Both the position numbers and the translations under genes were made by a program. Shown piece after piece: positions 24 through 53,835 of a stretch of DNA of 64,000 bases. Source of the DNA: Escherichia coli (GTDB lineage Bacteria; Pseudomonadota; Gammaproteobacteria; Enterobacterales; Enterobacteriaceae). How positions within the stretch are numbered: position 1 is the first letter of the stretch; each line of letters begins with the position of its first letter. The notes below the pieces were generated by a model. The model made no database searches and was not told where the DNA came from. It saw nothing but the letters and a program-made list of their open reading frames with translations. Location: NCBI RefSeq assembly GCF_044324875.1, contig NZ_CP172186.1. The stretch is one strand, 5' to 3'.

Positions 24-914
24 TCAGGCTGCCAGATCATCGTTTCCGATGGAAGCATAATAAGCTTTTTCTGCTTCTGCCGGTGGGATATGGCCCAGCC
101 TTTCCAGCAATCGTCGATTGTTATACCAGTCCACCCACGTGAGTGTGGCCAGCTCCACTTCTGTCCGGTTTTTCCAGCTCTTACGGTGTATTACCTCCGC
201 TTTGTAAAGGCCATTGATGCTCTCCGCCATCGCGTTGTCATACGAGTCACCAGTACTTCCTGTTGATGCCAGTAATCCGGCTTCCTTAAGCCGCTGTGTG
301 TAGGCCAGCGATACATACTGAGAACCTTTATCACTGTGATGGACTGTGCCGGACGGTCGACGGGCCCATAACGCCTGCTCCAGAGCATCCAGCACGAATG
401 TCGTTTCCATAGACGATGAGACCCGCCACCCCACGATGTATCCGGCAAACACATCAATGATGAACGCCACATAGACGACCCCCTGCCATGTGCTGACGTA
501 AGTAAAATCAGCCACCCACAACTGGTCAGGACGTTCTGCCACAAACTGACGGTTTACGCGGTCGCCTGCGGCAACGGCTTTCCGGCTGACGGTAGTGCGG
601 ACCTTTTTACCCCGGAGAACACCGGCAAGTCCCATAACCGCCATGAGGCGCGCCACTGTACATCTGGCTACCCTGATTCCTTCCCGTAACAACTGACGCC
701 AGACTTTACGCACACCGTATACCTGATGATTCCCATCGTATACGCGCAGTATCTCTTTCTTCAGCCAGTCATCGCGCTGCGCACGGGCACTGCGTTTATA
801 AGGATGATGTCGCTGTTGCTGACAGTGGTAATACGTTGACGGGGCAATATGTAGTTCACTGCATACCGGTCCGACCCCGTACAGCTTACGCAGCTTATCC
901 AGCAGTGGCATCAC
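24..914 (-). CDS. IS3-family transposase OrfB (DDE integrase core)
   Basis: 296-aa ORF, one substitution relative to 25472-26362; HSDKGSQY...YDNAMAES motif. Confidence 0.9.
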
Positions 915-1163
915 TTTTTCCAGAGGCGGTCGAACTCCGCCTTCGCAAAATAAGCGGAAGCCTGGCGAAGGATATCGTTACTGCGGCGCAGTTCACGATT
1001 TTCACGTTCCAGCTCTTTCAGACGCTGACGTTCAGCGGTGGTGAGCCCGCCATCACCGCCTCCGGTATCCCGCTCATGCTGGCGTACCCAGACACGCAGG
1101 GTCTCTGGCGTACAGCCAATCTTTGGAGCAATGGAACAAATTGCCGCCCACTGTGAGTCATAT
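911..1163 (-). pseudogene. 5'-truncated orfA of the IS629-like element
   Basis: Reverse complement matches the 3' two-thirds of orfA 25149-25475; N-terminal coding sequence absent. Confidence 0.7.
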
Positions 1164-3809: not shown

Positions 3810-4085
3810 TATTTTTGTAGAGCCGGAGGAAACAGACCAGACGGTTTAAATGAGCCGGTTACTTCCCGACAGACGACTCGGTGAAAAAAGTGGTGTGGCT
3901 GGCAATCCAGTCTGCGTCCCGGAAATGGACGATGCCGTTGAAGGACTGGCGAATGGCAATGAGCCGCTTTATTATCGAGTTCGGTGACCGCCTGGACGGT
4001 CACTTCTGAGAAAGGCATTTACACAGAATCTTAAACAGGCTCAAGTGAAGCTAAGCACACAATCAATTCAGGTCTTTGACATCCT

Positions 4086-4152
4086 CCATCTTAACTTCCA
4101 AAGGGTACTCCCGCCGACATAAGGCGGGAGTACCCTTTGGAAGTTAAGATGG
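4086..4152. repeat. Perfect 30-bp inverted repeat with 7-nt loop (hairpin; candidate bidirectional terminator or protein-binding site)
   Basis: CCATCTTAACTTCCAAAGGGTACTCCCGCC-gacataa-GGCGGGAGTACCCTTTGGAAGTTAAGATGG read directly. Confidence 0.9.
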
Positions 4153-4296
4153 AAAACCGACATAAGAACCCTCTGTTATCCTGAAACTCTTATATTTATA
4201 TAACTTGTGAAGGCGTTATGCACACAACCAATCTTCGCAAAGTCGGCGTCTCGTTGACATCCTCCACGCCCTGACGAATGTGGAGGAATGTCAATA

Positions 4297-6570
4297 TTAA
4301 TGTCCGGGCCACTCCTGTTGTTCAGTGACGTGATGTGATATTTCTTCTTTAGCTGTAGCCTCATTCTGGAGGTTTGAAGTAAATATACGCTCCATTGTTT
4401 GTGCAACCGATGGTGGCATTTTTTCTTCCACACGTTCCTCTTCCGGACAACTCTGTGTGATATAGCATACGTGCCGTTCTTCCCGGGATGTGGTATTGAT
4501 GATGTGAACTGCCTTGTTCCACAGGCTGTTTCCCCGGGCAGAGATATCTGTATCATATTGCGGAAGCAGATCCAGCGATGTTTGTGTTTCGTTAAGCTGC
4601 TTCTGGAAGGTATCGATGATACGGTAAGGCTCTGTACGGTTTTTACGACGTTTACGGGATGGTTTTGCTGTCAGTACACCAATAATGCTGCTGACATGCT
4701 CCGGTGTGGGAAAACGGCGCTGCACTGTCCTGGGGACGAGACGGCGGAGACGCTCCAGGCGGGGGGCTTCAACGGAAATATAGCGGTTGATGACCACCGG
4801 ATCACTGTCGCAACTTTTCTCGCTGTCCGGAATATACACAGAGGCTGACGGCACCACATCCCCCTGGAAAACGGTAAAGAACTCACCGGCATTCAGTCTG
4901 ATCAAATCCTGCACGTCGATTTTGCTTTCCATCTGGATGGTGATCTGGTTACCGTCCACCCAGGACTCACCCATCACACCATCGTGGCGCTGCAGGCTGC
5001 CCATTCTGGCCCGAGCCTCTTCACCGGCGGCATTTTTCACCGTTCTTGCCGTTTTGTCGTCACTGACAATGCGTCCGGCGAATTTGGTGCCGGCGTTCTG
5101 CATCAGTGTGGCGGTGTTGGTGGCGGAGGTCTGCCCTTCAATTCGCTCCTGATCCTGCGCCATCATTATCAGGGAAAACTCCAGTGAACGTACCTGGGTG
5201 GCCTCCACAGCAATGCGGTCTGTGTAGTAGGCACCGACTTCGTCAAGGATACAGATATAGGGGAAGCGGCCTTTGTATTTTTTTACTTCCAGGGTCTGTG
5301 CGTCTGTGCCTTCCAGGCGGTAGCCCAGGTCACGGGCGAGGATCATGCTCTGCTGGGTGATGAACATACGACCGAGTGCCGACGTGGTATGGGCTGATGT
5401 GTCCAGTGCGGGGATCATCACAATCAGAATTCGGTCGCTGTGGATACTGTCGCGAATATCGATGTCGCCGGCATCTGCCGCAAAGACGTCCCCGAAGGTT
5501 TCGGCAAAGGTTGTGAATGTTTCCGAGAACTGACCGGAGAGATAAGCATGCTGTTTACGGGGCTCCTCAGTCCAGGCTGACGGCGTTCTCACCAGTGACA
5601 TATCGAATCCCGGAACGTCCTGCAGGTAATTTCTCAGTGGTGCGATGGCTTCTTCCGGCCACTGGTCATCAAGCCCACGGCAATAGAGTTTTGCCATACC
5701 TTCCAGCGTCATATGCTCCCGTAACATCTGCAGGGACATGGTTTTTCTTTCCCGGACGCACCAGAATTTTGTGCCAAAGACCAGGGCTTTGTTCATGGCT
5801 ATCGCCCGTGACTGCCATTCACCCCCCTGAACGTTCTGGGGAAGCATGGACTGCATGGTTTCGGCGGTGAAGGCTTCGGTGCTGAATGCGAACGGGTTCC
5901 AGGTGTTTGACTGTGGGCGGGATTTTTCGCCGCTCTGAATGATTTCACTGCGGGATTTTCCGCCGTTCATGAAGTTGATGACCTCGATATCATCCTCCCG
6001 GCCAAAACGTCGGGAGAGATACCAGATTGTCCTCGTGGTATCGTTCTGTGCCTTTCCGTCAACAAAGGTAAAGCCTCTTCCCCAGCAGAGAGGGTTGAGC
6101 AGCCAGGCAAAGGTGGTTTCTGTTTTACCGCCACCGGTGGTGGAAAAAAATATGATATGCCGGGTGAGGTCATCCATGCTCAGCCAGAGCTCACGACCGA
6201 TATCGTTGATACGGCGGTAACCGACATAAAAAATCCCCCGTGCGGGGGATGTTTCATCTGCTTCATACTGAAACAGGGTGGGCCAGAAGCTGAAGAGGCT
6301 TCGCCTGACCTTTCTGTCCTGGGAGGGGTCATCAAGGCTGAGCGTCATGGGCATACGCAGGGGGCATCGCCAGCGTTGCAGCGTGAATATCACGGAGGTG
6401 ACCAGGGTGAACAGCAGACAGACAGGAAGGGCCAGTGGCCATATCAGGGCCGTAATGATACTGCCGGCCAGACACAGACCAATGATGTTCAGGTTGTGCA
6501 GTGCATTCCACAGCGGGTTTCCCCAGGCCGTGCGGTGTATGAGGTCAGGATTAACGTGATGCTGGCTCAT
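4297..6570 (-). CDS. trbC: Type IV coupling protein, TrbC/DotL(IcmO)-like
   Basis: 757 aa, N-terminal TM helices, Walker A STTGGGKTET; last gene of a trbA-trbB-trbC unit as in IncI1. Confidence 0.75.
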   Translation of the reverse strand: MSQHHVNPDLIHRTAWGNPLWNALHNLNIIGLCLAGSIITALIWPLALPVCLLFTLVTSVIFTLQRWRCPLRMPMTLSLDDPSQDRKVRRSLFSFWPTLFQYEADETSPARGIFYVGYRRINDIGRELWLSMDDLTRHIIFFSTTGGGKTETTFAWLLNPLCWGRGFTFVDGKAQNDTTRTIWYLSRRFGREDDIEVINFMNGGKSRSEIIQSGEKSRPQSNTWNPFAFSTEAFTAETMQSMLPQNVQGGEWQSRAIAMNKALVFGTKFWCVRERKTMSLQMLREHMTLEGMAKLYCRGLDDQWPEEAIAPLRNYLQDVPGFDMSLVRTPSAWTEEPRKQHAYLSGQFSETFTTFAETFGDVFAADAGDIDIRDSIHSDRILIVMIPALDTSAHTTSALGRMFITQQSMILARDLGYRLEGTDAQTLEVKKYKGRFPYICILDEVGAYYTDRIAVEATQVRSLEFSLIMMAQDQERIEGQTSATNTATLMQNAGTKFAGRIVSDDKTARTVKNAAGEEARARMGSLQRHDGVMGESWVDGNQITIQMESKIDVQDLIRLNAGEFFTVFQGDVVPSASVYIPDSEKSCDSDPVVINRYISVEAPRLERLRRLVPRTVQRRFPTPEHVSSIIGVLTAKPSRKRRKNRTEPYRIIDTFQKQLNETQTSLDLLPQYDTDISARGNSLWNKAVHIINTTSREERHVCYITQSCPEEERVEEKMPPSVAQTMERIFTSNLQNEATAKEEISHHVTEQQEWPGH

Positions 6571-8982: not shown

Positions 8983-9292
8983 GGGGATTCCTCCATAGAT
9001 GAATGGATAAATTTCGGGATTAAGTCGGGTGGCATGAATGCGAATCAGCGCCGGTAATAACCGGACAGGAATGAATTCAACAGGACATTTTTACAGAGAA
9101 GAGCGAACGGCAGAAGGTGGTGGGAGACAGGTACAAAAAAACCGACTGGTGAGGCCGGTTTTTTTGCGATTCCGGGGTGGAGTTGGTGGCTCTGACCGGA
9201 GGAAGTCTCTTTTCAGCTAACAATGAGAGAGCTGTTGTGACAGGCAATGTAAGAGTAAGCAGCAGTGATTTCCTCCATTGACGGAGAAACGG

Positions 9293-14647: not shown

Positions 14648-14901
14648 CGGTGGGGTACAAACGCAGAAATTTTGTTGTCATTACATCATCAGTTTTAGCC
14701 TGCAGAGACGCTGAAAAATCAGCGTTTTCAGACCCTGTTCAGGTTAGTGAATATTCTTGCCTGGCCTTTCGGCAATATCAATCCCCTGATGTGTGCACAC
14801 GTAGTCACTTTCCGGCTTTATTTCTGTCCCTGACACAAAATACGTGGTGGCATGAAAAGGATTGTGGCGGACAGGAAAACGATTAGAATAGCGGCGGGCG
14901 C

Positions 14902-15195
14902 TTGAGGCTGTATGCCGAAAGCGTTTTGTGGACGGCATGTAGCAGAAAGCCCCAGGCGATTTTTTTATCAATCAACCCAGGGCCCACTGTAATGCCTAGA
15001 CAACATTATAGTAGCCCGATGACGGCCGAAAGGCAATGGAGGGGCTGCGATGCCACAACGAACGTTTTTAATGATGTTAATCGTCGTCTGTGTGACGATA
15101 CTGTGTTTTGTCTGGATGGTGAGGGATTCGCTTTGCGGATTTCGTATCGAGCAGGGAAATACGGTGCTTGTGGCAACGTTAGCCTACGAAGTTAA
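14902..15195 (+). CDS. Possible pndC (mok-like) overlapping reading frame of the pnd locus
   Basis: ORF in alternative frame overlapping the Hok-family toxin gene, as in hok/mok loci; real start uncertain. Confidence 0.35.
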   Translation: MRLYAESVLWTACSRKPQAIFLSINPGPTVMPRQHYSSPMTAERQWRGCDATTNVFNDVNRRLCDDTVFCLDGEGFALRISYRAGKYGACGNVSLRS

Positions 15196-25148: not shown

Positions 25149-25475
25149 ATGACTAAAAATACTCGTTTTTCCCCCGAAGTCCGTCAGAGGGCGATTCGTA
25201 TGGTTCTGGAAAGTCAGGGCGAATATGACTCACAGTGGGCGGCAATTTGTTCCATTGCCCCAAAGATTGGCTGTACACCGGAGACTCTGCGTGTCTGGGT
25301 ACGCCAGCATGAGCGGGATACCGGAGGCGGTGATGGCGGGCTCACCACCGCTGAACGTCAGCGTCTGAAAGAGCTGGAACGTGAAAATCGTGAACTGCGC
25401 CGCAGTAACGATATCCTTCGCCAGGCTTCCGCTTATTTTGCGAAGGCGGAGTTCGACCGCCTCTGGAAAAAGTGA
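25149..25475 (+). CDS. IS3-family transposase OrfA (HTH)
   Basis: 108 aa [19 protein letters not shown]..., leucine-zipper region; overlaps orfB start. Confidence 0.9.
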
Positions 25476-26362
25476 TGCCACTGCTGGATAAGCTGCGTAA
25501 GCTGTACGGGGTCGGACCGGTATGCAGTGAACTACATATTGCCCCGTCAACGTATTACCACTGTCAGCAACAGCGACATCATCCTGATAAACGCAGTGCC
25601 CGTGCGCAGCGCGATGACTGGCTGAAGAAAGAGATACTGCGCGTATACGATGGGAATCATCAGGTATACGGTGTGCGTAAAGTCTGGCGTCAGTTGTTAC
25701 GGGAAGGAATCAGGGTAGCCAGATGTACAGTGGCGCGCCTCATGGCGGTTATGGGACTTGCCGGTGTTCTCCGGGGTAAAAAGGTCCGCACTACCGTCAG
25801 CCGGAAAGCCGTTGCCGCAGGCGACCGCGTAAACCGTCAGTTTGTGGCAGAACGTCCTGACCAGTTGTGGGTGGCTGATTTTACTTACGTCAGCACATGG
25901 CAGGGGGTCGTCTATGTGGCGTTCATCATTGATGTGTTTGCCGGATACATCGTGGGGTGGCGGGTCTCATCGTCTATGGAAACGACATTCGTGCTGGATG
26001 CTCTGGAGCAGGCGTTATGGGCCCGTCGACCGTCCGGCACAGTCCATCACAGTGATAAAGGTTCTCAGTATGTATCGCTGGCCTACACACAGCGGCTTAA
26101 GGAAGCCGGATTACTGGCATCAACAGGAAGTACTGGTGACTCGTATGACAACGCGATGGCGGAGAGCATCAATGGCCTTTACAAAGCGGAGGTAATACAC
26201 CGTAAGAGCTGGAAAAACCGGACAGAAGTGGAGCTGGCCACACTCACGTGGGTGGACTGGTATAACAATCGACGATTGCTGGAAAGGCTGGGCCATATCC
26301 CACCGGCAGAAGCAGAAAAAGCTTATTATGCTTCCATCGGAAACGATGATCTGGCAGCCTGA
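25472..26362 (+). CDS. IS3-family transposase OrfB (DDE)
   Basis: 296 aa, rve domain; made as OrfAB fusion by -1 frameshift in this family. Confidence 0.9.
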
Positions 26363-26405
26363 GTTCACAGATAAAACACTCTCCAGGAAACCCGGGGCGG
26401 TTCAA

Positions 26406-47322: not shown

Positions 47323-47643
47323 ATGAAAATTAAACAGCATAAAGAAAAACTGGAGATTATAAGGGATATTATTCGAGAGACGCTGTTGGGTAATGCTGCT
47401 CTTATTGTTCTGGCAGCCATGGTTCCGGTTGTACTGGTGAAACCATGGGATTCGATGACATTTATTTTTATGGGGGCCGTGTGTGTTTCTTTTGCAGTCA
47501 TTCTGTTTTGGCTGGTTTATATAGTTTGTTTGTATATAGGAACGCTTGTAAAGAATATTTTTATAAGGATTTTTGCTTTTTCTATTTGGGCCCTTTCTGC
47601 TGAGGGGGCAATTATTTATAACATGATAAAGATATTATCATAG
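47323..47643 (+). CDS. Hypothetical small membrane protein
   Basis: 106 aa, 2-3 TM helices, AT-rich, opposite strand to backbone. Confidence 0.35.
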   Translation: MKIKQHKEKLEIIRDIIRETLLGNAALIVLAAMVPVVLVKPWDSMTFIFMGAVCVSFAVILFWLVYIVCLYIGTLVKNIFIRIFAFSIWALSAEGAIIYNMIKILS

Positions 47644-47734
47644 AAAAGTTGTTTATATATTGGCTCTATGTAAAAAGAATGGTACCTCTGCCAGAGTTCC
47701 CGGCGTTATTTTTATGTGTTGGGGCCATGAATGT

Positions 47735-48055
47735 TTATTTGGCATCCCTTATCTCGCCCATTAGCAGGCGGATACGCAGCCAGGTGTCATGATCCAGAAC
47801 AGGTGATGGTGTTACCATGCAAGCACAGTGCCCGATGGCGAGCGTATCAAGGAAGCGTTTTGCATCGCTGGCACTTTCATATTCACCAGTATGGATCAAC
47901 ATCCACCTTTGCCCCAACGCTGATTCGGTGTGAATTGGTTGCGAGAATGCGATTGTGTAAACGTCTTCAATTGTAACGATACGATTATTATCCGCAGTGG
48001 CTGCACGGGAGGATAAGTGTTTCATAAAGGGTCTCATAGCGTTAATTTTGAACAA
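47735..48055 (-). CDS. Hypothetical protein downstream of rci
   Basis: 106-aa ORF; no recognised domain. Confidence 0.35.
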   Translation of the reverse strand: MFKINAMRPFMKHLSSRAATADNNRIVTIEDVYTIAFSQPIHTESALGQRWMLIHTGEYESASDAKRFLDTLAIGHCACMVTPSPVLDHDTWLRIRLLMGEIRDAK

Positions 48056-48066
48056 AAATTATTTGT

Positions 48067-49236
48067 TCAGGAGGAGGATATGAAAATACTGTTCGCTTTT
48101 GTCATGAACTGGCTGTTTGTTAACGGACAAATCATGACCCGTTCATCAATGTTTGCGGGTAGCTCGCCTGGTGTGGGGACGCGTTCACCCCGCTGAGCAG
48201 CCTGGGCCAGTGCGCGCAGCAACAATACGCTGGCGTGAGATATTGCCAGTTCCCGGGTTTCAGCACGGCTTTCAAGGTCGAAATCGTGCAGTGTCACAAT
48301 GAACACTCCGTTTCTGTTTCTGACAGTTGCAGGGTAGGGAACAAAATAAGGGGAAATTTTGCTGGTCTGTTTACGCCTTGCATCGAGTTTACTGACCAGG
48401 TGATATGCCCGGAGATGTGTGTACCGTTTCAACATGTTCAGGGAGCGGTGACCGGAAATGGCTGCAATCTCCATAACGTTCAGTGTGCCGAGCTCGAACA
48501 GACGGCTGATGGCCTCATGGCGGAGATCGTGAAAATGCAGATTTTCTATTTTCAGATCCAGAAGAGCGGTACGCCAGGCGCTTTTGAAACCGGACGAGGT
48601 GTAATTGAACACATTGCCGTTTATCTGTTGTGGCAGAATTTGCAGGTAGTTACGTGCTTTCCGGGAGAGTGGTACGTCGCGTGGTGAGCCATTTTTCGTT
48701 TCAGGAAGATGCGCCACGCCGTGCTGCAAATCGAGGTGTTCCCAGCGTAATGAGAGAATTTCTCCCTGGCGCATTGCTGTTTCCAGAGCCAGATGGAAGA
48801 TAACGTAGAGCTGCGGATTTTTGTCCCTGAAATAGCGGGAAAGGCGGCGTTCTTCACCAGAAGTCAGTCGGCGGTCGCGGCCATTACTGATTTTCGGTTT
48901 TCGGACCAGTTCAACAGGATTCATACGGCATGTTCCCCATTCCACACGGGCGATATTGAATAATGATGATAAAAGGGCAAGTTCAAGACGGACGGTATTT
49001 CCGGTGATTTGACGCCCTGTTCGTGGGTTAATTTGAGCTAAACGCTGATCCCGGTAACCGGCGATATCAATGGTAGTGATTTCATCCATATAGCGCTCGG
49101 CCATAGGGTGACGTTTAATCACATTGACGCGATAAAACTCCTGCAGATGACCTTTTTTATGGACGGAAACGGTTTTCAGGTATTTGTCCAGCGCCCGGTT
49201 GAGAGTCATTTTGCGAATTTTGATTTTTCGAAACAT
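48067..49236 (-). CDS. rci: Shufflon-specific tyrosine recombinase Rci
   Basis: Tyrosine-recombinase C-terminus (HDLRHEAIS...[14 protein letters not shown]); adjacent to 19-bp repeats; start taken at MFRKIK since the ORF-track start overlaps a repeat. Confidence 0.85.
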
Positions 49237-49298
49237 ATCTGCCTTCCACGATAAAAACGGGGAAGGTAGGAATAGTGAAACGGAAATGCAATATCGCC

Positions 49299-51117
49299 GT
49301 GCCAATCCGGTTCGTGGATTAGGGTATCAGGTAGCACTGTTCTGACAGGAAAAATCGCAAATGGAGAACGACTACCTTTGCCGTCTGGTTTTTCTGCCAG
49401 CCAGTGTACCTGGAGCGTCAGCAATGCTGAAAACCCGCATGGCTGGAAGCCAAATTACTTCGCAGGTTCTGTTGCGACATATGATTCGAACAGGATTGTG
49501 AAGTGTGGTTACTACGATGAATACAATTTTCACGGCGGTACAAACAGGAACGACCTGACGGGGAAATGTAGTTACATTGTGGTTTGCCAGTAAATCACTT
49601 TGTCATTGGCAAATGGCATGTACAGTTATTTTTCCAATGATGTGTTCTGTCGTATCGCAATAGCCATACCAGGCATTATTGTTTACAGGTATTGAACGGA
49701 CAAGCCAGATAAAGCCAATTCCAGAGCTGCATTCTGCACCACCCCCGATCACCTTCTTACCCATTGGGCAGGTGGCAGTAGCACCAGGCCAGCGGAGTTT
49801 TGATGCTGTTACTTTGACGATTTCAATATCGCCTTTTCCTGCATTTTTCCACGAACCGGATTGGCACGGAGGCCAGTGCCAATCCGGTATCTGGACAACG
49901 ACAAAAATGAACTTCACTACCAGTACATACAATATCGGGAAAAATACTCGTAATCTGAGCATTGGCGTACATGCGTACTGCTCGTGGACATACCTTAATG
50001 GCTCGCCTTTTGGTGGTTTTCAGCAGATATACGCCGACCAAAACAAGGTTTGGTATGTGAATAATTATGCGTGGGGAAATTATGAGTCCGGTGGCACAAT
50101 TACAGTGACATGCCTCAACCTTCCTGGTGCCGGAATCTAACCAAAAGGGCAACAGTAAGCATCGACGTGCTCTTCATCAATACCATCTCCGATGCCGTAC
50201 ATTCTTGTACCTGTCATGACGTACCCGGCAGGGCACTGAATCGGCTTGTAATAAATAGAACCTCCACTTCTGCCACCGATAAAATGTGCGGAGGTCGCTT
50301 CATACCATTTACAGGCAGAATAGTTCACTTTATTGCCTCCAAGCCACAAACCGGATTGGCACTGGCCTCCGTGCCAATCCGGTGTGTGGGTTGGCTTTGA
50401 ATCCTACCCTGTGGGAAGCCCTATCCCGTGGCCATCTGCCACTCCTCCACAAGGCTATCTGTTGATGAACGGCCAGTCGTTTTCCTGTTCCCGGTATCCT
50501 CAGCTTGCCCGTGCTTATCCTGGCTGTAAATTGCCCGATCTGCGCGGTGTTTTTATCCGTGGCTGGGATAACGGGAAGGGACTTGATGGTGATCGGAACA
50601 GACAACTCCTGAGTTATCAGGCCGATCAATCAGGCGTCTATCACGAACGTGGCGGATGGCTGAAAGGGCATCATAGTGGTATGCCATACTGGGCACAGGG
50701 GAGTACCACAGAAATGCGTCCCAAAAATATTGCATTCAACTACATTGTTAAAGCCAGCTAGGGACTCACATCTGATAGGCATACACAGAGAAAACACCGT
50801 TACCACAGGCGTAATTTTGTGTTGGTCTGGAGATGATTTGATATGACGCTCCCACTGGCACGGCAAATGAAATAAATGCTGTCTTTCCGTAGGAGGGGTT
50901 ATTGCTGGCATTCATACCAATGAAAGCGCCGTTCACATAGCCCTGAAGATTTGATGTGTTGGCGCAATCACCGCCACCGGCACCATTTCCACCGGAAGCG
51001 TACACAAACAAAGTTCCTCTGCCGTTATTTCTCCCGTTAAATGTTCCCCGGTGAGAACCCAGATTGCTGTAACTTCCGTCAGGTGCACCAATCGTTCGCC
51101 ACACACCGGATTGGCAC
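49299..51117. repeat. PilV shufflon: six 19-bp repeats GTGCCAATCCGGTNNGTGG bounding three invertible segments with convergent alternative pilV 3' exons
   Basis: Repeats at 49299-49317(+), 49849-49867(-), 49876-49894(+), 50345-50363(-), 50371-50389(+), 51099-51117(-); overlapping ORFs on both strands. Confidence 0.85.
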
Positions 51118-52100
51118 GAAAGTATTGCCCCTTTACTGTCGCGGCCTACAAGTCCGTCCGGTGAGCAGGAAGTACCTGCGGTGGCTGTTTTATCCAGCTG
51201 TAAATACTCACCCGTGGAAAGACGCCCCTCAGACCGGACAGTTCCACCACTGACTTTTCCTCCTTTGAGCTCTCCTTCGGTTGTGATCCCTTTGTTGTTA
51301 ACAGCACGTATCCATTGGCTGTCCGTCATGGTGAAACCGCCTCCGTGCGTCGTGTTCATCCACCCCTTGTTGTTTCTGGTGATAAGCCAGCCGTCTTCGC
51401 TGGTTATATCGCCTTTCACCGTGGCTTTCTGACCATTGAGGTTACCGGCGTTATTGATGTCATTTCCGCCCATGTTGATAGCTGTGTGCATCTGGTTCAG
51501 CTCTGATCTCCCCGGGACCTGGAAACGATACAACCTGTCGCTTTCCTGCAGATCATCACCCGTCATGACGACGGCAATGTGACCTGCCGAACAGGTGAGT
51601 CCGTAATCCCCCGGTTTGTCTGTCCAGGCGCCGAATGCGCCGGTTGCTGTTCCGTTTTTACCAATATAACCACCCAGCCCGGGAAGCTGTCCTGCCACAC
51701 TGCGCAGACCATCTTCTTTGATATTCTGCCCCCCTGTTGAGCAGGTCAGGGCTTCAAGACGTCCTGTAGTCTGGTTACGGCGGATACCCGTGATATAACT
51801 CTGCCCAAACGGAGAATGATTAAATCCCTGTTTCAGGTATCCCTTGCGAATCAAATCATCGGCTGTAAAGTTTGCCGGAAGGCTGCCGTTGTGCAGAGTG
51901 GCATTGTTATCGGCAATGTAATTTCTGGCTGCGGTATTGTAGGCATCTGCATGAGAAGCAGCACTCTGGTAAAGCTGTTCATTCAGCCAGTTTTCTATTT
52001 CGGAATAAATCAGCGGCGTGGCGATACCAATCACTATCAGTCCCGCCAGTATTTCAAGCAGAATAAAACCTTTGTCGTCATCGTGTCTGAACTTTTTCAC
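50766..52100 (-). CDS. pilV: PilV minor pilin/adhesin (constant N-terminus plus currently attached shufflon exon)
   Basis: Prepilin-like N-terminus GFILLEILAGLIVIG; ORF crosses the repeat at 51099-51117. Confidence 0.85.
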   Translation of the reverse strand: MKKFRHDDDKGFILLEILAGLIVIGIATPLIYSEIENWLNEQLYQSAASHADAYNTAARNYIADNNATLHNGSLPANFTADDLIRKGYLKQGFNHSPFGQSYITGIRRNQTTGRLEALTCSTGGQNIKEDGLRSVAGQLPGLGGYIGKNGTATGAFGAWTDKPGDYGLTCSAGHIAVVMTGDDLQESDRLYRFQVPGRSELNQMHTAINMGGNDINNAGNLNGQKATVKGDITSEDGWLITRNNKGWMNTTHGGGFTMTDSQWIRAVNNKGITTEGELKGGKVSGGTVRSEGRLSTGEYLQLDKTATAGTSCSPDGLVGRDSKGAILSCQSGVWRTIGAPDGSYSNLGSHRGTFNGRNNGRGTLFVYASGGNGAGGGDCANTSNLQGYVNGAFIGMNASNNPSYGKTAFISFAVPVGASYQIISRPTQNYACGNGVFSVYAYQM

Positions 52101-52804
52101 GTGAATATCTCCGAAGTGCGGAAAACGGAATCAGGGAGGAGGGTTAGTGCATACAGTGATGCGCAGAGAAACGGGGCGAACGGCAGTGCCTGCTGATGTC
52201 TGTGACGGCAGAAGAGGAGGATAAACAGAAATGCCCCGGAAGCTGCGGCGGTGATTAGCAGCGGCGTGTGTTGTGGCTGTGTCCACATTGCAATTCCTGC
52301 TATCAGGAATACATCACCAAGGCCGAGTGCTTCTGTTCCTTTTGCCGTTATGAAAAACTGCCGTAGCAGGTATGTCATGCCGAACCAGAGTGATGCGTTG
52401 AGGAGGCTGTATGTGAGCTCCTCCAGGCTGTACCTGAACGCTGCCCCCAGAACAATCAGTGAAAGCGTGAATATCCGGGGAAGCCGACAGACGGCGATGT
52501 CCGTCAGCGTCATTACAGTTAATAATCCCGTCAGAATGGAAAGGAATAACAGCCCCGTGGCTTCAACACCATATGCGCCGTTGAGGCTGACACTCACTAT
52601 GGCCAGAAGGCAACACACGTACACCACCGGCCTGGGCGGCCGGGTGTCGTGTACTGCTGACAGGTAGAGAGCGGCGGTGATGTATGCAATATAAAGAATA
52701 ACCGCCAGGATGATGATTATTATTGTCATGCTCAGTAATGCGCTCACCGTCACCTCGTATTTATTAATATTGTCTGAAATACCGGTTGTGGATTTTTCGG
52801 GCAT
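52097..52804 (-). CDS. pilU: PilU prepilin peptidase-like polytopic membrane protein
   Basis: 235 aa, multiple TM; position between pilT and pilV. Confidence 0.7.
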   Translation of the reverse strand: MPEKSTTGISDNINKYEVTVSALLSMTIIIIILAVILYIAYITAALYLSAVHDTRPPRPVVYVCCLLAIVSVSLNGAYGVEATGLLFLSILTGLLTVMTLTDIAVCRLPRIFTLSLIVLGAAFRYSLEELTYSLLNASLWFGMTYLLRQFFITAKGTEALGLGDVFLIAGIAMWTQPQHTPLLITAAASGAFLFILLFCRHRHQQALPFAPFLCASLYALTLLPDSVFRTSEIFT

Positions 52805-53240
52805 ATATCATGCGCCGGGCTGTGTTATTTTTGCTGAAACCGGCGTTATAGCTGCCAAGGCATTCCCAGTTAACGCCGCAGCGTTGAAAATGGCGGGCCA
52901 GTATCCAGGCACCGGTATGAATATTCAGGCAGGGCTTTTTAAGCAGTTCATCCTTGTTTTTAATGACGCCCAGTTTTTTCAGTTCAGGAATATGCACTGA
53001 ATTAATCTGCATTATTCCGTAATCCGTACTGATAATTTTTCCGGATTTGTTTTTATTGTGATTTATCGCAGTGGCGACCAGGCCGCTTTCCTGCTGTGCA
53101 ATGGTTTTAAGAAGCTCAGGCGCAATCAGGTAACGTTTTCCGGCCTGAATAAAACAGGAATCGAGATGATTATTATTCATCACAGATGCGATTGATGTGT
53201 GACTGAATAAAAGCAGGACAGAGAGATATAACCATTTCAT
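52764..53240 (-). CDS. pilT: PilT lytic transglycosylase (SLT domain)
   Basis: Signal peptide; SLT catalytic-region motifs QQESGL...DYGIMQIN. Confidence 0.8.
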   Translation of the reverse strand: MKWLYLSVLLLFSHTSIASVMNNNHLDSCFIQAGKRYLIAPELLKTIAQQESGLVATAINHNKNKSGKIISTDYGIMQINSVHIPELKKLGVIKNKDELLKKPCLNIHTGAWILARHFQRCGVNWECLGSYNAGFSKNNTARRMIYARKIHNRYFRQY

Positions 53241-53298: not shown

Positions 53299-53835
53299 TT
53301 AGCTGTTTGTTTCAAGGGTGATGTTATTTTTGTCGTTACTACATACTGTTACGGGATCCACAGTAGCCGGGGCGGTATTCATGATTTTGGTAAACATGGA
53401 TGAACTGCGCAGGCTGTTAATGAGTTCCACGCAATTTTCTTTCGGTACATTATTGCTGGTAATCGTATAACCATACTTATCTGCTGTTGCCTTAATGGTG
53501 ACATCACCGCCCCAGGCATTTTTGGCCTTGTTACCACCGGCGATCATATCGGCCGGCAGGGAACCACTCTGCGTCAGCGTTTTGATATAATCACTGCTGG
53601 TATATTGTCCCTGGAACTTGTACTGCTTCATTTTGGTTGCAATGGTCTGCAGGTTTTTCACTTCGCGCTGGTTATCACTGGATGACATGGTACTGGACAT
53701 CTGACTCATTGCGAGAACAACCACAATACCGATAATAATCAGTGCGCCGGCAACTTCCAGTAAGGTTAAACCTTTATCCTCCTCTTTCTCTTTTTTTAAA
53801 GCAAAATAAGAATAAAGACATGATCTGAAGTTCAT
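53299..53835 (-). CDS. pilS: PilS type IVB prepilin (major thin-pilus subunit)
   Basis: Long leader followed by GLTLLEVAGALIIIGIVVV hydrophobic pilin N-terminus. Confidence 0.8.
   Translation of the reverse strand: MNFRSCLYSYFALKKEKEEDKGLTLLEVAGALIIIGIVVVLAMSQMSSTMSSSDNQREVKNLQTIATKMKQYKFQGQYTSSDYIKTLTQSGSLPADMIAGGNKAKNAWGGDVTIKATADKYGYTITSNNVPKENCVELINSLRSSSMFTKIMNTAPATVDPVTVCSNDKNNITLETNS

Follow-up and report, generated by a model that had tools for sequence, protein, structure and literature searches.

The region at positions 49299-51117 of the window (the whole 64-kb stretch of DNA analysed here), together with the adjoining genes, very probably constitutes a multiple-inversion shufflon of the Rci/sfx type, located on a conjugative plasmid that belongs to the I-complex and is of the IncK2/Z type. 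This identification, in which the sequence-only reading of the locus as a shufflon is upheld, is based on an orthologue of the recombinase Rci, sfx sites of the R64 type, a Shufflon_N domain, six exons in frame with pilV and the location in a thin-pilus operon. Shufflon systems have been characterised since the 1980s. The finding itself is already known, as repeat variants have been published for the same plasmid group, and the current understanding is unchanged by it.

A pattern search of the 64-kb window for GTGCCAATCCGGTNNNTGG identified six sites, all of them with 0 mismatches. By chance, 0.07 sites with at most 2 mismatches and 0.72 sites with at most 3 are expected from dinucleotide-preserving shuffles, and six sites were reached by no shuffle. 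No vestigial or degenerate seventh sfx site was found in the 64-kb window when the search was relaxed to 3 mismatches. The six perfect matches are:

49299..49317, plus strand: sfx repeat 1, type e (tcg), boundary of the shufflon on the rci side
49849..49867, minus strand: sfx repeat 2, type e (tcg)
49876..49894, plus strand: sfx repeat 3, type f (atc)
50344..50362, minus strand: sfx repeat 4, type h (ttg), repeat-h in PMC5350095
50371..50389, plus strand: sfx repeat 5, type g (gtg)
51099..51117, minus strand: sfx repeat 6, type g (gtg), joining the pilV constant region

They form three inverted pairs, which enclose the segments S1 (531 bp), S2 (449 bp) and S3 (709 bp). The earlier description of six 19-bp repeats arranged as three pairs around segments of about 530, 450 and 710 bp is thereby borne out by measurement. 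In each site, a left arm that is not conserved is followed by the 7-bp core GTGCCAA and a conserved 12-bp right arm (TCCGGTNNNTGG). Wherever the seven R64 sites are conserved, the window sites have the same bases in core and right arm. The variable right-arm triplets tcg, atc, gtg and ttg are those of the IncK2 repeats e, f, g and h (Seiffert et al. 2017, PMC5350095), and the window reads e-e-f-h-g-g in this notation. Adjacent segments are joined by back-to-back repeats, which lie 8 bp apart. The spacer at 49868-49875 (GGAGGCCA) is the reverse complement of that at 50363-50370 (TGGCCTCC), the two being one junction module in opposite orientations, as expected after inversions that involve several segments.

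The type IVb thin pilus has PilV as its minor pilin and tip adhesin. The pilV ORF runs from 52100 to 50766 on the minus strand and encodes 444 amino acids, the last 116 of which lie within 50766-51116. The segment attached to pilV had been said to give the ORF ending at 50766, and this is the case, with the right exon of S3 as the tip. The gene crosses repeat 6 as CQSGVW (residues 329-334). The constant region matches the Pfam family Shufflon_N (PF04917, "Bacterial shufflon protein, N-terminal constant region") with E-values of 5e-60 and 2e-47. The full-length protein is 48% identical to PilV of R64 and differs in 2 residues from the PGAP-annotated PilV of plasmid pC (NZ_CP069173). A search of the PDB sequences with full-length PilV gave no match, and NCBIfam returned only a sub-threshold GspG match. 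The constant region and the six exons are located as follows:

51118..52100, minus strand: pilV constant region, about 328 aa, with prepilin N-terminus and Shufflon_N (Pfam)
49300..49593, plus strand: S1 left exon, silent, 97 aa, D'-like (R64 D' 80%, R721 88% identity)
49603..49866, minus strand: S1 right exon, silent, 87 aa (...AICQ), B-segment type (R64 B-segment exon 56%, R721 66%)
49877..50140, plus strand: S2 left exon, silent, 87 aa, C (R64 C 83%, R721 94%; PGAP "shufflon protein C" in relative L002)
50137..50361, minus strand: S2 right exon, silent, 74 aa, C' (R64 C' 81%, R721 83%)
50372..50761, plus strand: S3 left exon, silent, 129 aa, Collar-domain tip (R64 and R721 without counterpart)
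50766..51116, minus strand: S3 right exon, 116 aa, A-like, attached to pilV (R64 PilVA tip 67%, R721 A 78%)

Every repeat, when read outward in the pilV frame (C-Q-S-G-x-W), leads into an open continuation (6/6). The two exons of each segment are convergent and almost fill it, and in S2 their stop codons overlap at 50137-50140. This agrees with the convergent alternative pilV 3' exons that had been proposed for each segment. Homologues among the R64 and R721 exons were found for five of the six. The alignment to the PilV tips of R64, which had been put forward as a check, yielded identities of 56-83% for these five, and the left exon of S3 is the one without a counterpart. The exon ending in AICQ is labelled "shufflon protein B" by PGAP, whereas the TP114 paper (PMC9045228) implies B'. 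No family was assigned by NCBIfam to the six exon peptides, and a search against PHROGs matched none of them except the Collar exon. Short coding sequences that PGAP annotates in shufflons as "hypothetical protein", "phage tail protein" or "prepilin, shufflon protein A" are such silent exons.

The recombinase gene and two further genes of the pilus operon are located on the same strand as pilV:

48067..49236, minus strand: rci, shufflon-specific tyrosine recombinase, 389 aa (R64 Rci homology, Pfam, PGAP in relatives)
52097..52804, minus strand: A24 prepilin peptidase of the pilU type, upstream of pilV in the operon (ORF, PGAP in relatives)
53299..53835, minus strand: major pilin of the type IV pilus, pilS type (ORF, PGAP in relatives)

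Over 373 amino acids, the window Rci shares 75% identity with its R64 counterpart. It matches the Pfam family Phage_integrase (1.4e-24) and retains the catalytic motifs of tyrosine recombinases. NCBIfam gave only sub-threshold matches to Xer and integron families. The position of rci beside the shufflon, as stated in the sequence-only reading, stands. The overlap of its start with the outermost repeat does not, since it holds solely for the longest ORF, which begins at TTG 49305. Judged from the sequence context, translation most likely starts at ATG 49236. A GGAAGG Shine-Dalgarno motif is located 5 nt upstream of this codon, the alignment with R64 Rci starts at residue 6 counted from it, and PGAP places the start at the equivalent position in relatives whose protein is identical or differs in one residue. 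With this start, rci and repeat 1 lie 62 bp apart, compared with about 51 bp in R64.

One of the exons is clearly homologous to phage tail-fibre tips, which would fit a host-range inversion cassette of phage origin with a serine invertase of the Gin/Cin/Hin type, as in the Mu G or P1 C segments. Such an origin has next to no probability, because the adjoining recombinase is an Rci orthologue of the tyrosine family, three segments with sfx sites are present, the invariant part of the protein is a Shufflon_N pilin rather than a tail fibre, and the neighbours are pil and tra genes. The Shufflon_N pilin, the Phage_integrase match and the 75% identity to R64 Rci effectively refute it. The phage systems share with the Rci/sfx shufflon the principle that the receptor-binding C-terminus of a surface fibre is exchanged by DNA inversion, but they use the serine invertases Gin and Cin, other sites, a single segment and a virion protein as target.

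The shufflon lies at the end of a pilS-pilU-pilV type IVb thin-pilus operon of a conjugative plasmid. In relatives with at least 99% identity, genes for a prepilin peptidase, a lytic transglycosylase and the major pilin are located upstream of pilV on the same strand. The genes traE and traF follow beyond rci, an arrangement common to R64 and all relatives. A promoter and terminator scan of 47600-52900 was uninformative; shuffled sequence yielded more sites. Megablast of 48000-52200 returned 2316 plasmid records, 40 of them with at least 99% identity. The records inspected were all typed by MOB-suite as IncK2/Z, MOBP and MPF_I. The 24-kb backbone at 25001-49290 is 100% identical to that of pLH50-c-A (NZ_CP100501), which is typed IncK2/Z. 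By its near identity to typed relatives, the window plasmid can probably be assigned to IncK2/Z as well.

Nine full three-segment copies with at least 98.5% identity, namely the window and eight deposited plasmids, were compared for the order and orientation of their segments. Eight distinct arrangements were observed, each copy coming from a different record (L001 to L019 denote relatives):

Window: S1+ S2+ S3+
L001: S2+ S1+ S3+
L002: S3+ S1- S2+
L003: S1- S3+ S2+
L005: S1- S2+ S3+
L006: S3+ S2+ S1-
L009 and L010: S1+ S3- S2+
L019: S1- S3- S2-

This comparison of records, rather than of reads from one culture, is indirect evidence that inversion isomers exist among the relatives. Their absence, together with repeats that Rci homologues do not recognise, had been named in the sequence-only reading as evidence against a shufflon; what was found is the same three segments in eight arrangements among near-identical plasmids. 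In plasmid p135-1, for example, the coordinates are nearly those of the window (2-bp offset) and the arrangement is S1- S3- S2-. The length of the annotated PilV in the relatives (444, 415 or 402 amino acids) tracks the exon that adjoins the constant region. In every relative, each segment keeps its own variable right-arm triplet. This is expected if strand exchange falls in the 7-bp core, as in the R64 model quoted in PMC5350095.

Reduced shufflons also occur among the relatives, with two segments in L007 and L011 and one segment in pLH50-c-A (L016). In pSTEC405_1 (L015, CP061218) PilV ends in the Collar exon, one repeat was found and no recombinase is annotated within the 4 kb flanking the match. 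This suggests either that segment loss and locking are common or that some of the assemblies are collapsed; shufflons are known to be mis-assembled (PMC5430464). These reduced and locked relatives would also fit a frozen relic in which Rci or the sites have lost their function. For the window a relic is very improbable, as rci is full-length with its catalytic motifs kept, its product differs in 0-1 residues from those of relatives whose shufflons occur in several arrangements, and all six sfx sites are perfect. The shufflon is predicted, with near certainty, to be active in the window plasmid.

Another explanation concerns only the order of the segments: the window could represent the assembly consensus or a chimera of a mixed population, in which case the shufflon would be real and the current tip would not be a property of one molecule. 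Heterogeneity within a clone and the difficulty of assembling shufflons, which are mentioned in PMC5430464 and PMC5350095 (citing Brouwer 2015), speak for it, as does the single segment of pLH50-c-A next to a 100% identical backbone. The window arrangement was, moreover, found colinear at 99% identity or more in none of the complete E. coli RefSeq genomes, where the best match had 94% coverage in three pieces. On the other hand, the arrangement is self-consistent, with perfect repeats, six intact exons and pilV in frame, and a Shigella sonnei IncK2/Z plasmid (L014, NZ_CP151335) carries the same segments in the same order and orientation, though its sequence is divergent. A consensus or chimeric order is considered unlikely, though it is the most plausible of the three alternatives. 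Some of the arrangement differences among the relatives could likewise be assembly artefacts.

The function of the Rci/sfx shufflon can be described by analogy with R64, following the R64 literature (Komano 1999; Gyohda et al. 2006; both cited through PMC5350095 and PMC9045228). Rci is predicted to bind each sfx site and to recombine inverted pairs only, so that segments would invert singly or in blocks and excision would not normally occur. The core and the right arm lie within the coding sequence (C-Q-S-G-x-W), and the reading frame is therefore kept after any inversion. Three segments would allow up to 3! x 2^3 = 48 arrangements and six PilV proteins. The exon that abuts repeat 6 would be fused to the constant PilV N-terminus of 328 amino acids and would be the only one translated, and the other five, which appear to have neither a promoter nor a start of their own, would be silent. 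In the window sequence an A-like tip is attached, with D'-like, B-type, C, C' and Collar-type tips held in store.

The variable end of PilV would select structures on the recipient surface during mating in liquid, which in R64 are sugars of the LPS core. The LPS-core ligand of R64 PilVA is GlcNAc-beta(1-3)-Glc, and other LPS core sugars are bound by the C and C' tips (Ishiwa and Komano 2004, as cited in PMC9045228). The attached exon sets the recipient specificity of liquid mating in R64 and TP114 (PMC9045228) and, according to a statement in PMC5350095, also the recipient specificity in pCT. By analogy with this work on R64, pCT and TP114 (PMC5350095, PMC9045228), the attached exon may control recipient specificity in the window plasmid too, as had been claimed for it. 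At 67-83% identity to the R64 tips, the sugar specificities of R64 serve only as leads for those of the window, and across the range of 56-83% a receptor specificity is not safely transferable from sequence comparison. A shufflon of this kind would influence the range of bacteria that an IncK2/Z resistance plasmid reaches in liquid settings such as the gut. It also explains mis-assembly and differences at this site between otherwise identical plasmids in epidemiological comparisons.

The closest described systems are the IncK2 shufflons of pDV45, pDV10, pTMSA1088 and pNVI1292 (PMC5350095), whose repeat variants e, f, g and h are the same as those of the window. These plasmids contain as many as four segments with eight repeats, and the window does not have the second e-e segment with exons of 91 and 86 amino acids. 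The four-segment shufflon of pNVI1292 (L013) carries all three window segments at 99.6-99.9% identity, and its Rci differs from that of the window in 35 of 389 residues. On this comparison, the window shufflon appears as the four-segment IncK2 set minus one segment. The fourth segment is located at 3868-4421 in pNVI1292. It encodes the 91-amino-acid exon (...VAVCAR), which has no counterpart in R64 and is possibly equivalent to PilVD, the variant called "new" in TP114.

The IncI2 plasmid R721 has the same layout of three segments and six repeats, with the pairs [A|A'], [B-type|D'] and [C|C'] and exon identities of 66-94%. However, R721 pairs A with A' (73 aa), whereas A is paired with the 129-aa Collar-domain exon in the window, and the backbones are MPF_T IncI2 and MPF_I IncK2/Z, respectively. 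From the exon counterparts and the common layout, the window shufflon can be regarded as an R721-type layout in which A' is replaced. The prototype, R64 (IncI1), shares the sfx core and right arm, the PilV architecture, the position in the operon and homologues of five of the six exons. It differs by its four segments and seven repeats, with D' standing alone and B/B' and A/A' as pairs, so that the window has neither A' nor a counterpart of the 85-aa exon of R64 but an additional Collar-type exon. The experimentally best characterised relative is the IncI2 plasmid TP114, where the variant becomes locked once rci is deleted and where the range of recipients, both in broth and in the mouse gut, depends on the PilV variant (PMC9045228). 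Its shufflon comprises four segments that encode eight variants of 69-113 amino acids, and no Collar-type tip was reported for it (PMC9045228).

The left exon of S3 (50372-50761) contains a Collar domain (Pfam PF07484, 4e-13). It matches PHROG 523 ("tail collar fiber protein", 2e-41) and 20 more families, 17 of which are tail proteins, and is 42-47% identical to the tail-fibre ends of HK106-like and other phages. The match to the receptor-binding tip of T4 gp37 (2XGF, 3e-20) covers the N-terminal collar strands and the C-terminal strand NIAFNYIV, and the long needle/head insert is absent from the exon. No homologue was found in R64 or R721. At 95% identity or more, the exon is present in about 408 PLSDB plasmids, often as the end of the annotated PilV, and versions with 66% identity were found in one Citrobacter and one Salmonella plasmid, again within shufflons. 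A literature search found no paper describing a Collar-type tip in I-complex plasmids. A fusion of PilV and Collar under programmed inversion in Pectobacterium brasiliense was reported as new in a 2023 screen (PMC9881135).

Compared with the S. sonnei plasmid L014, S3 (50390-51098) is 99.7% identical, whereas S1 reaches 76%, S2 85% and the region as a whole about 87%. Shufflons that share S3 at 99.7-100% identity, while their remaining segments agree at only 76-85%, suggest that whole segments may be exchanged between plasmids. The Collar tip in the place of A' could represent a functional class of PilV adhesins that derives from, or is shared with, phage receptor-binding proteins and has a recipient range unlike that of the seven characterised R64 tips, a tentative proposal to which we give slightly less than an even chance. 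It offers a modest lead, as it ties the recognition of recipients by the pilus to phage receptor-binding modules.

Elsewhere in the window, two inverted copies of an IS3-family element with 100% identity (1-1163 and 25223-26385) flank roughly 24 kb of transfer genes; the left one is truncated by the window edge. Each copy contains an ALIL frameshift pseudoknot according to Rfam (840-956, minus strand, and 25430-25546, plus strand). Two further Rfam families were found above the gathering score, a sok antitoxin RNA at 14896-15052 (plus strand, 125.6 bits) and an AgrB-type antisense RNA at 9133-9220 (minus strand, 51.8 bits), both of which probably belong to plasmid addiction modules.
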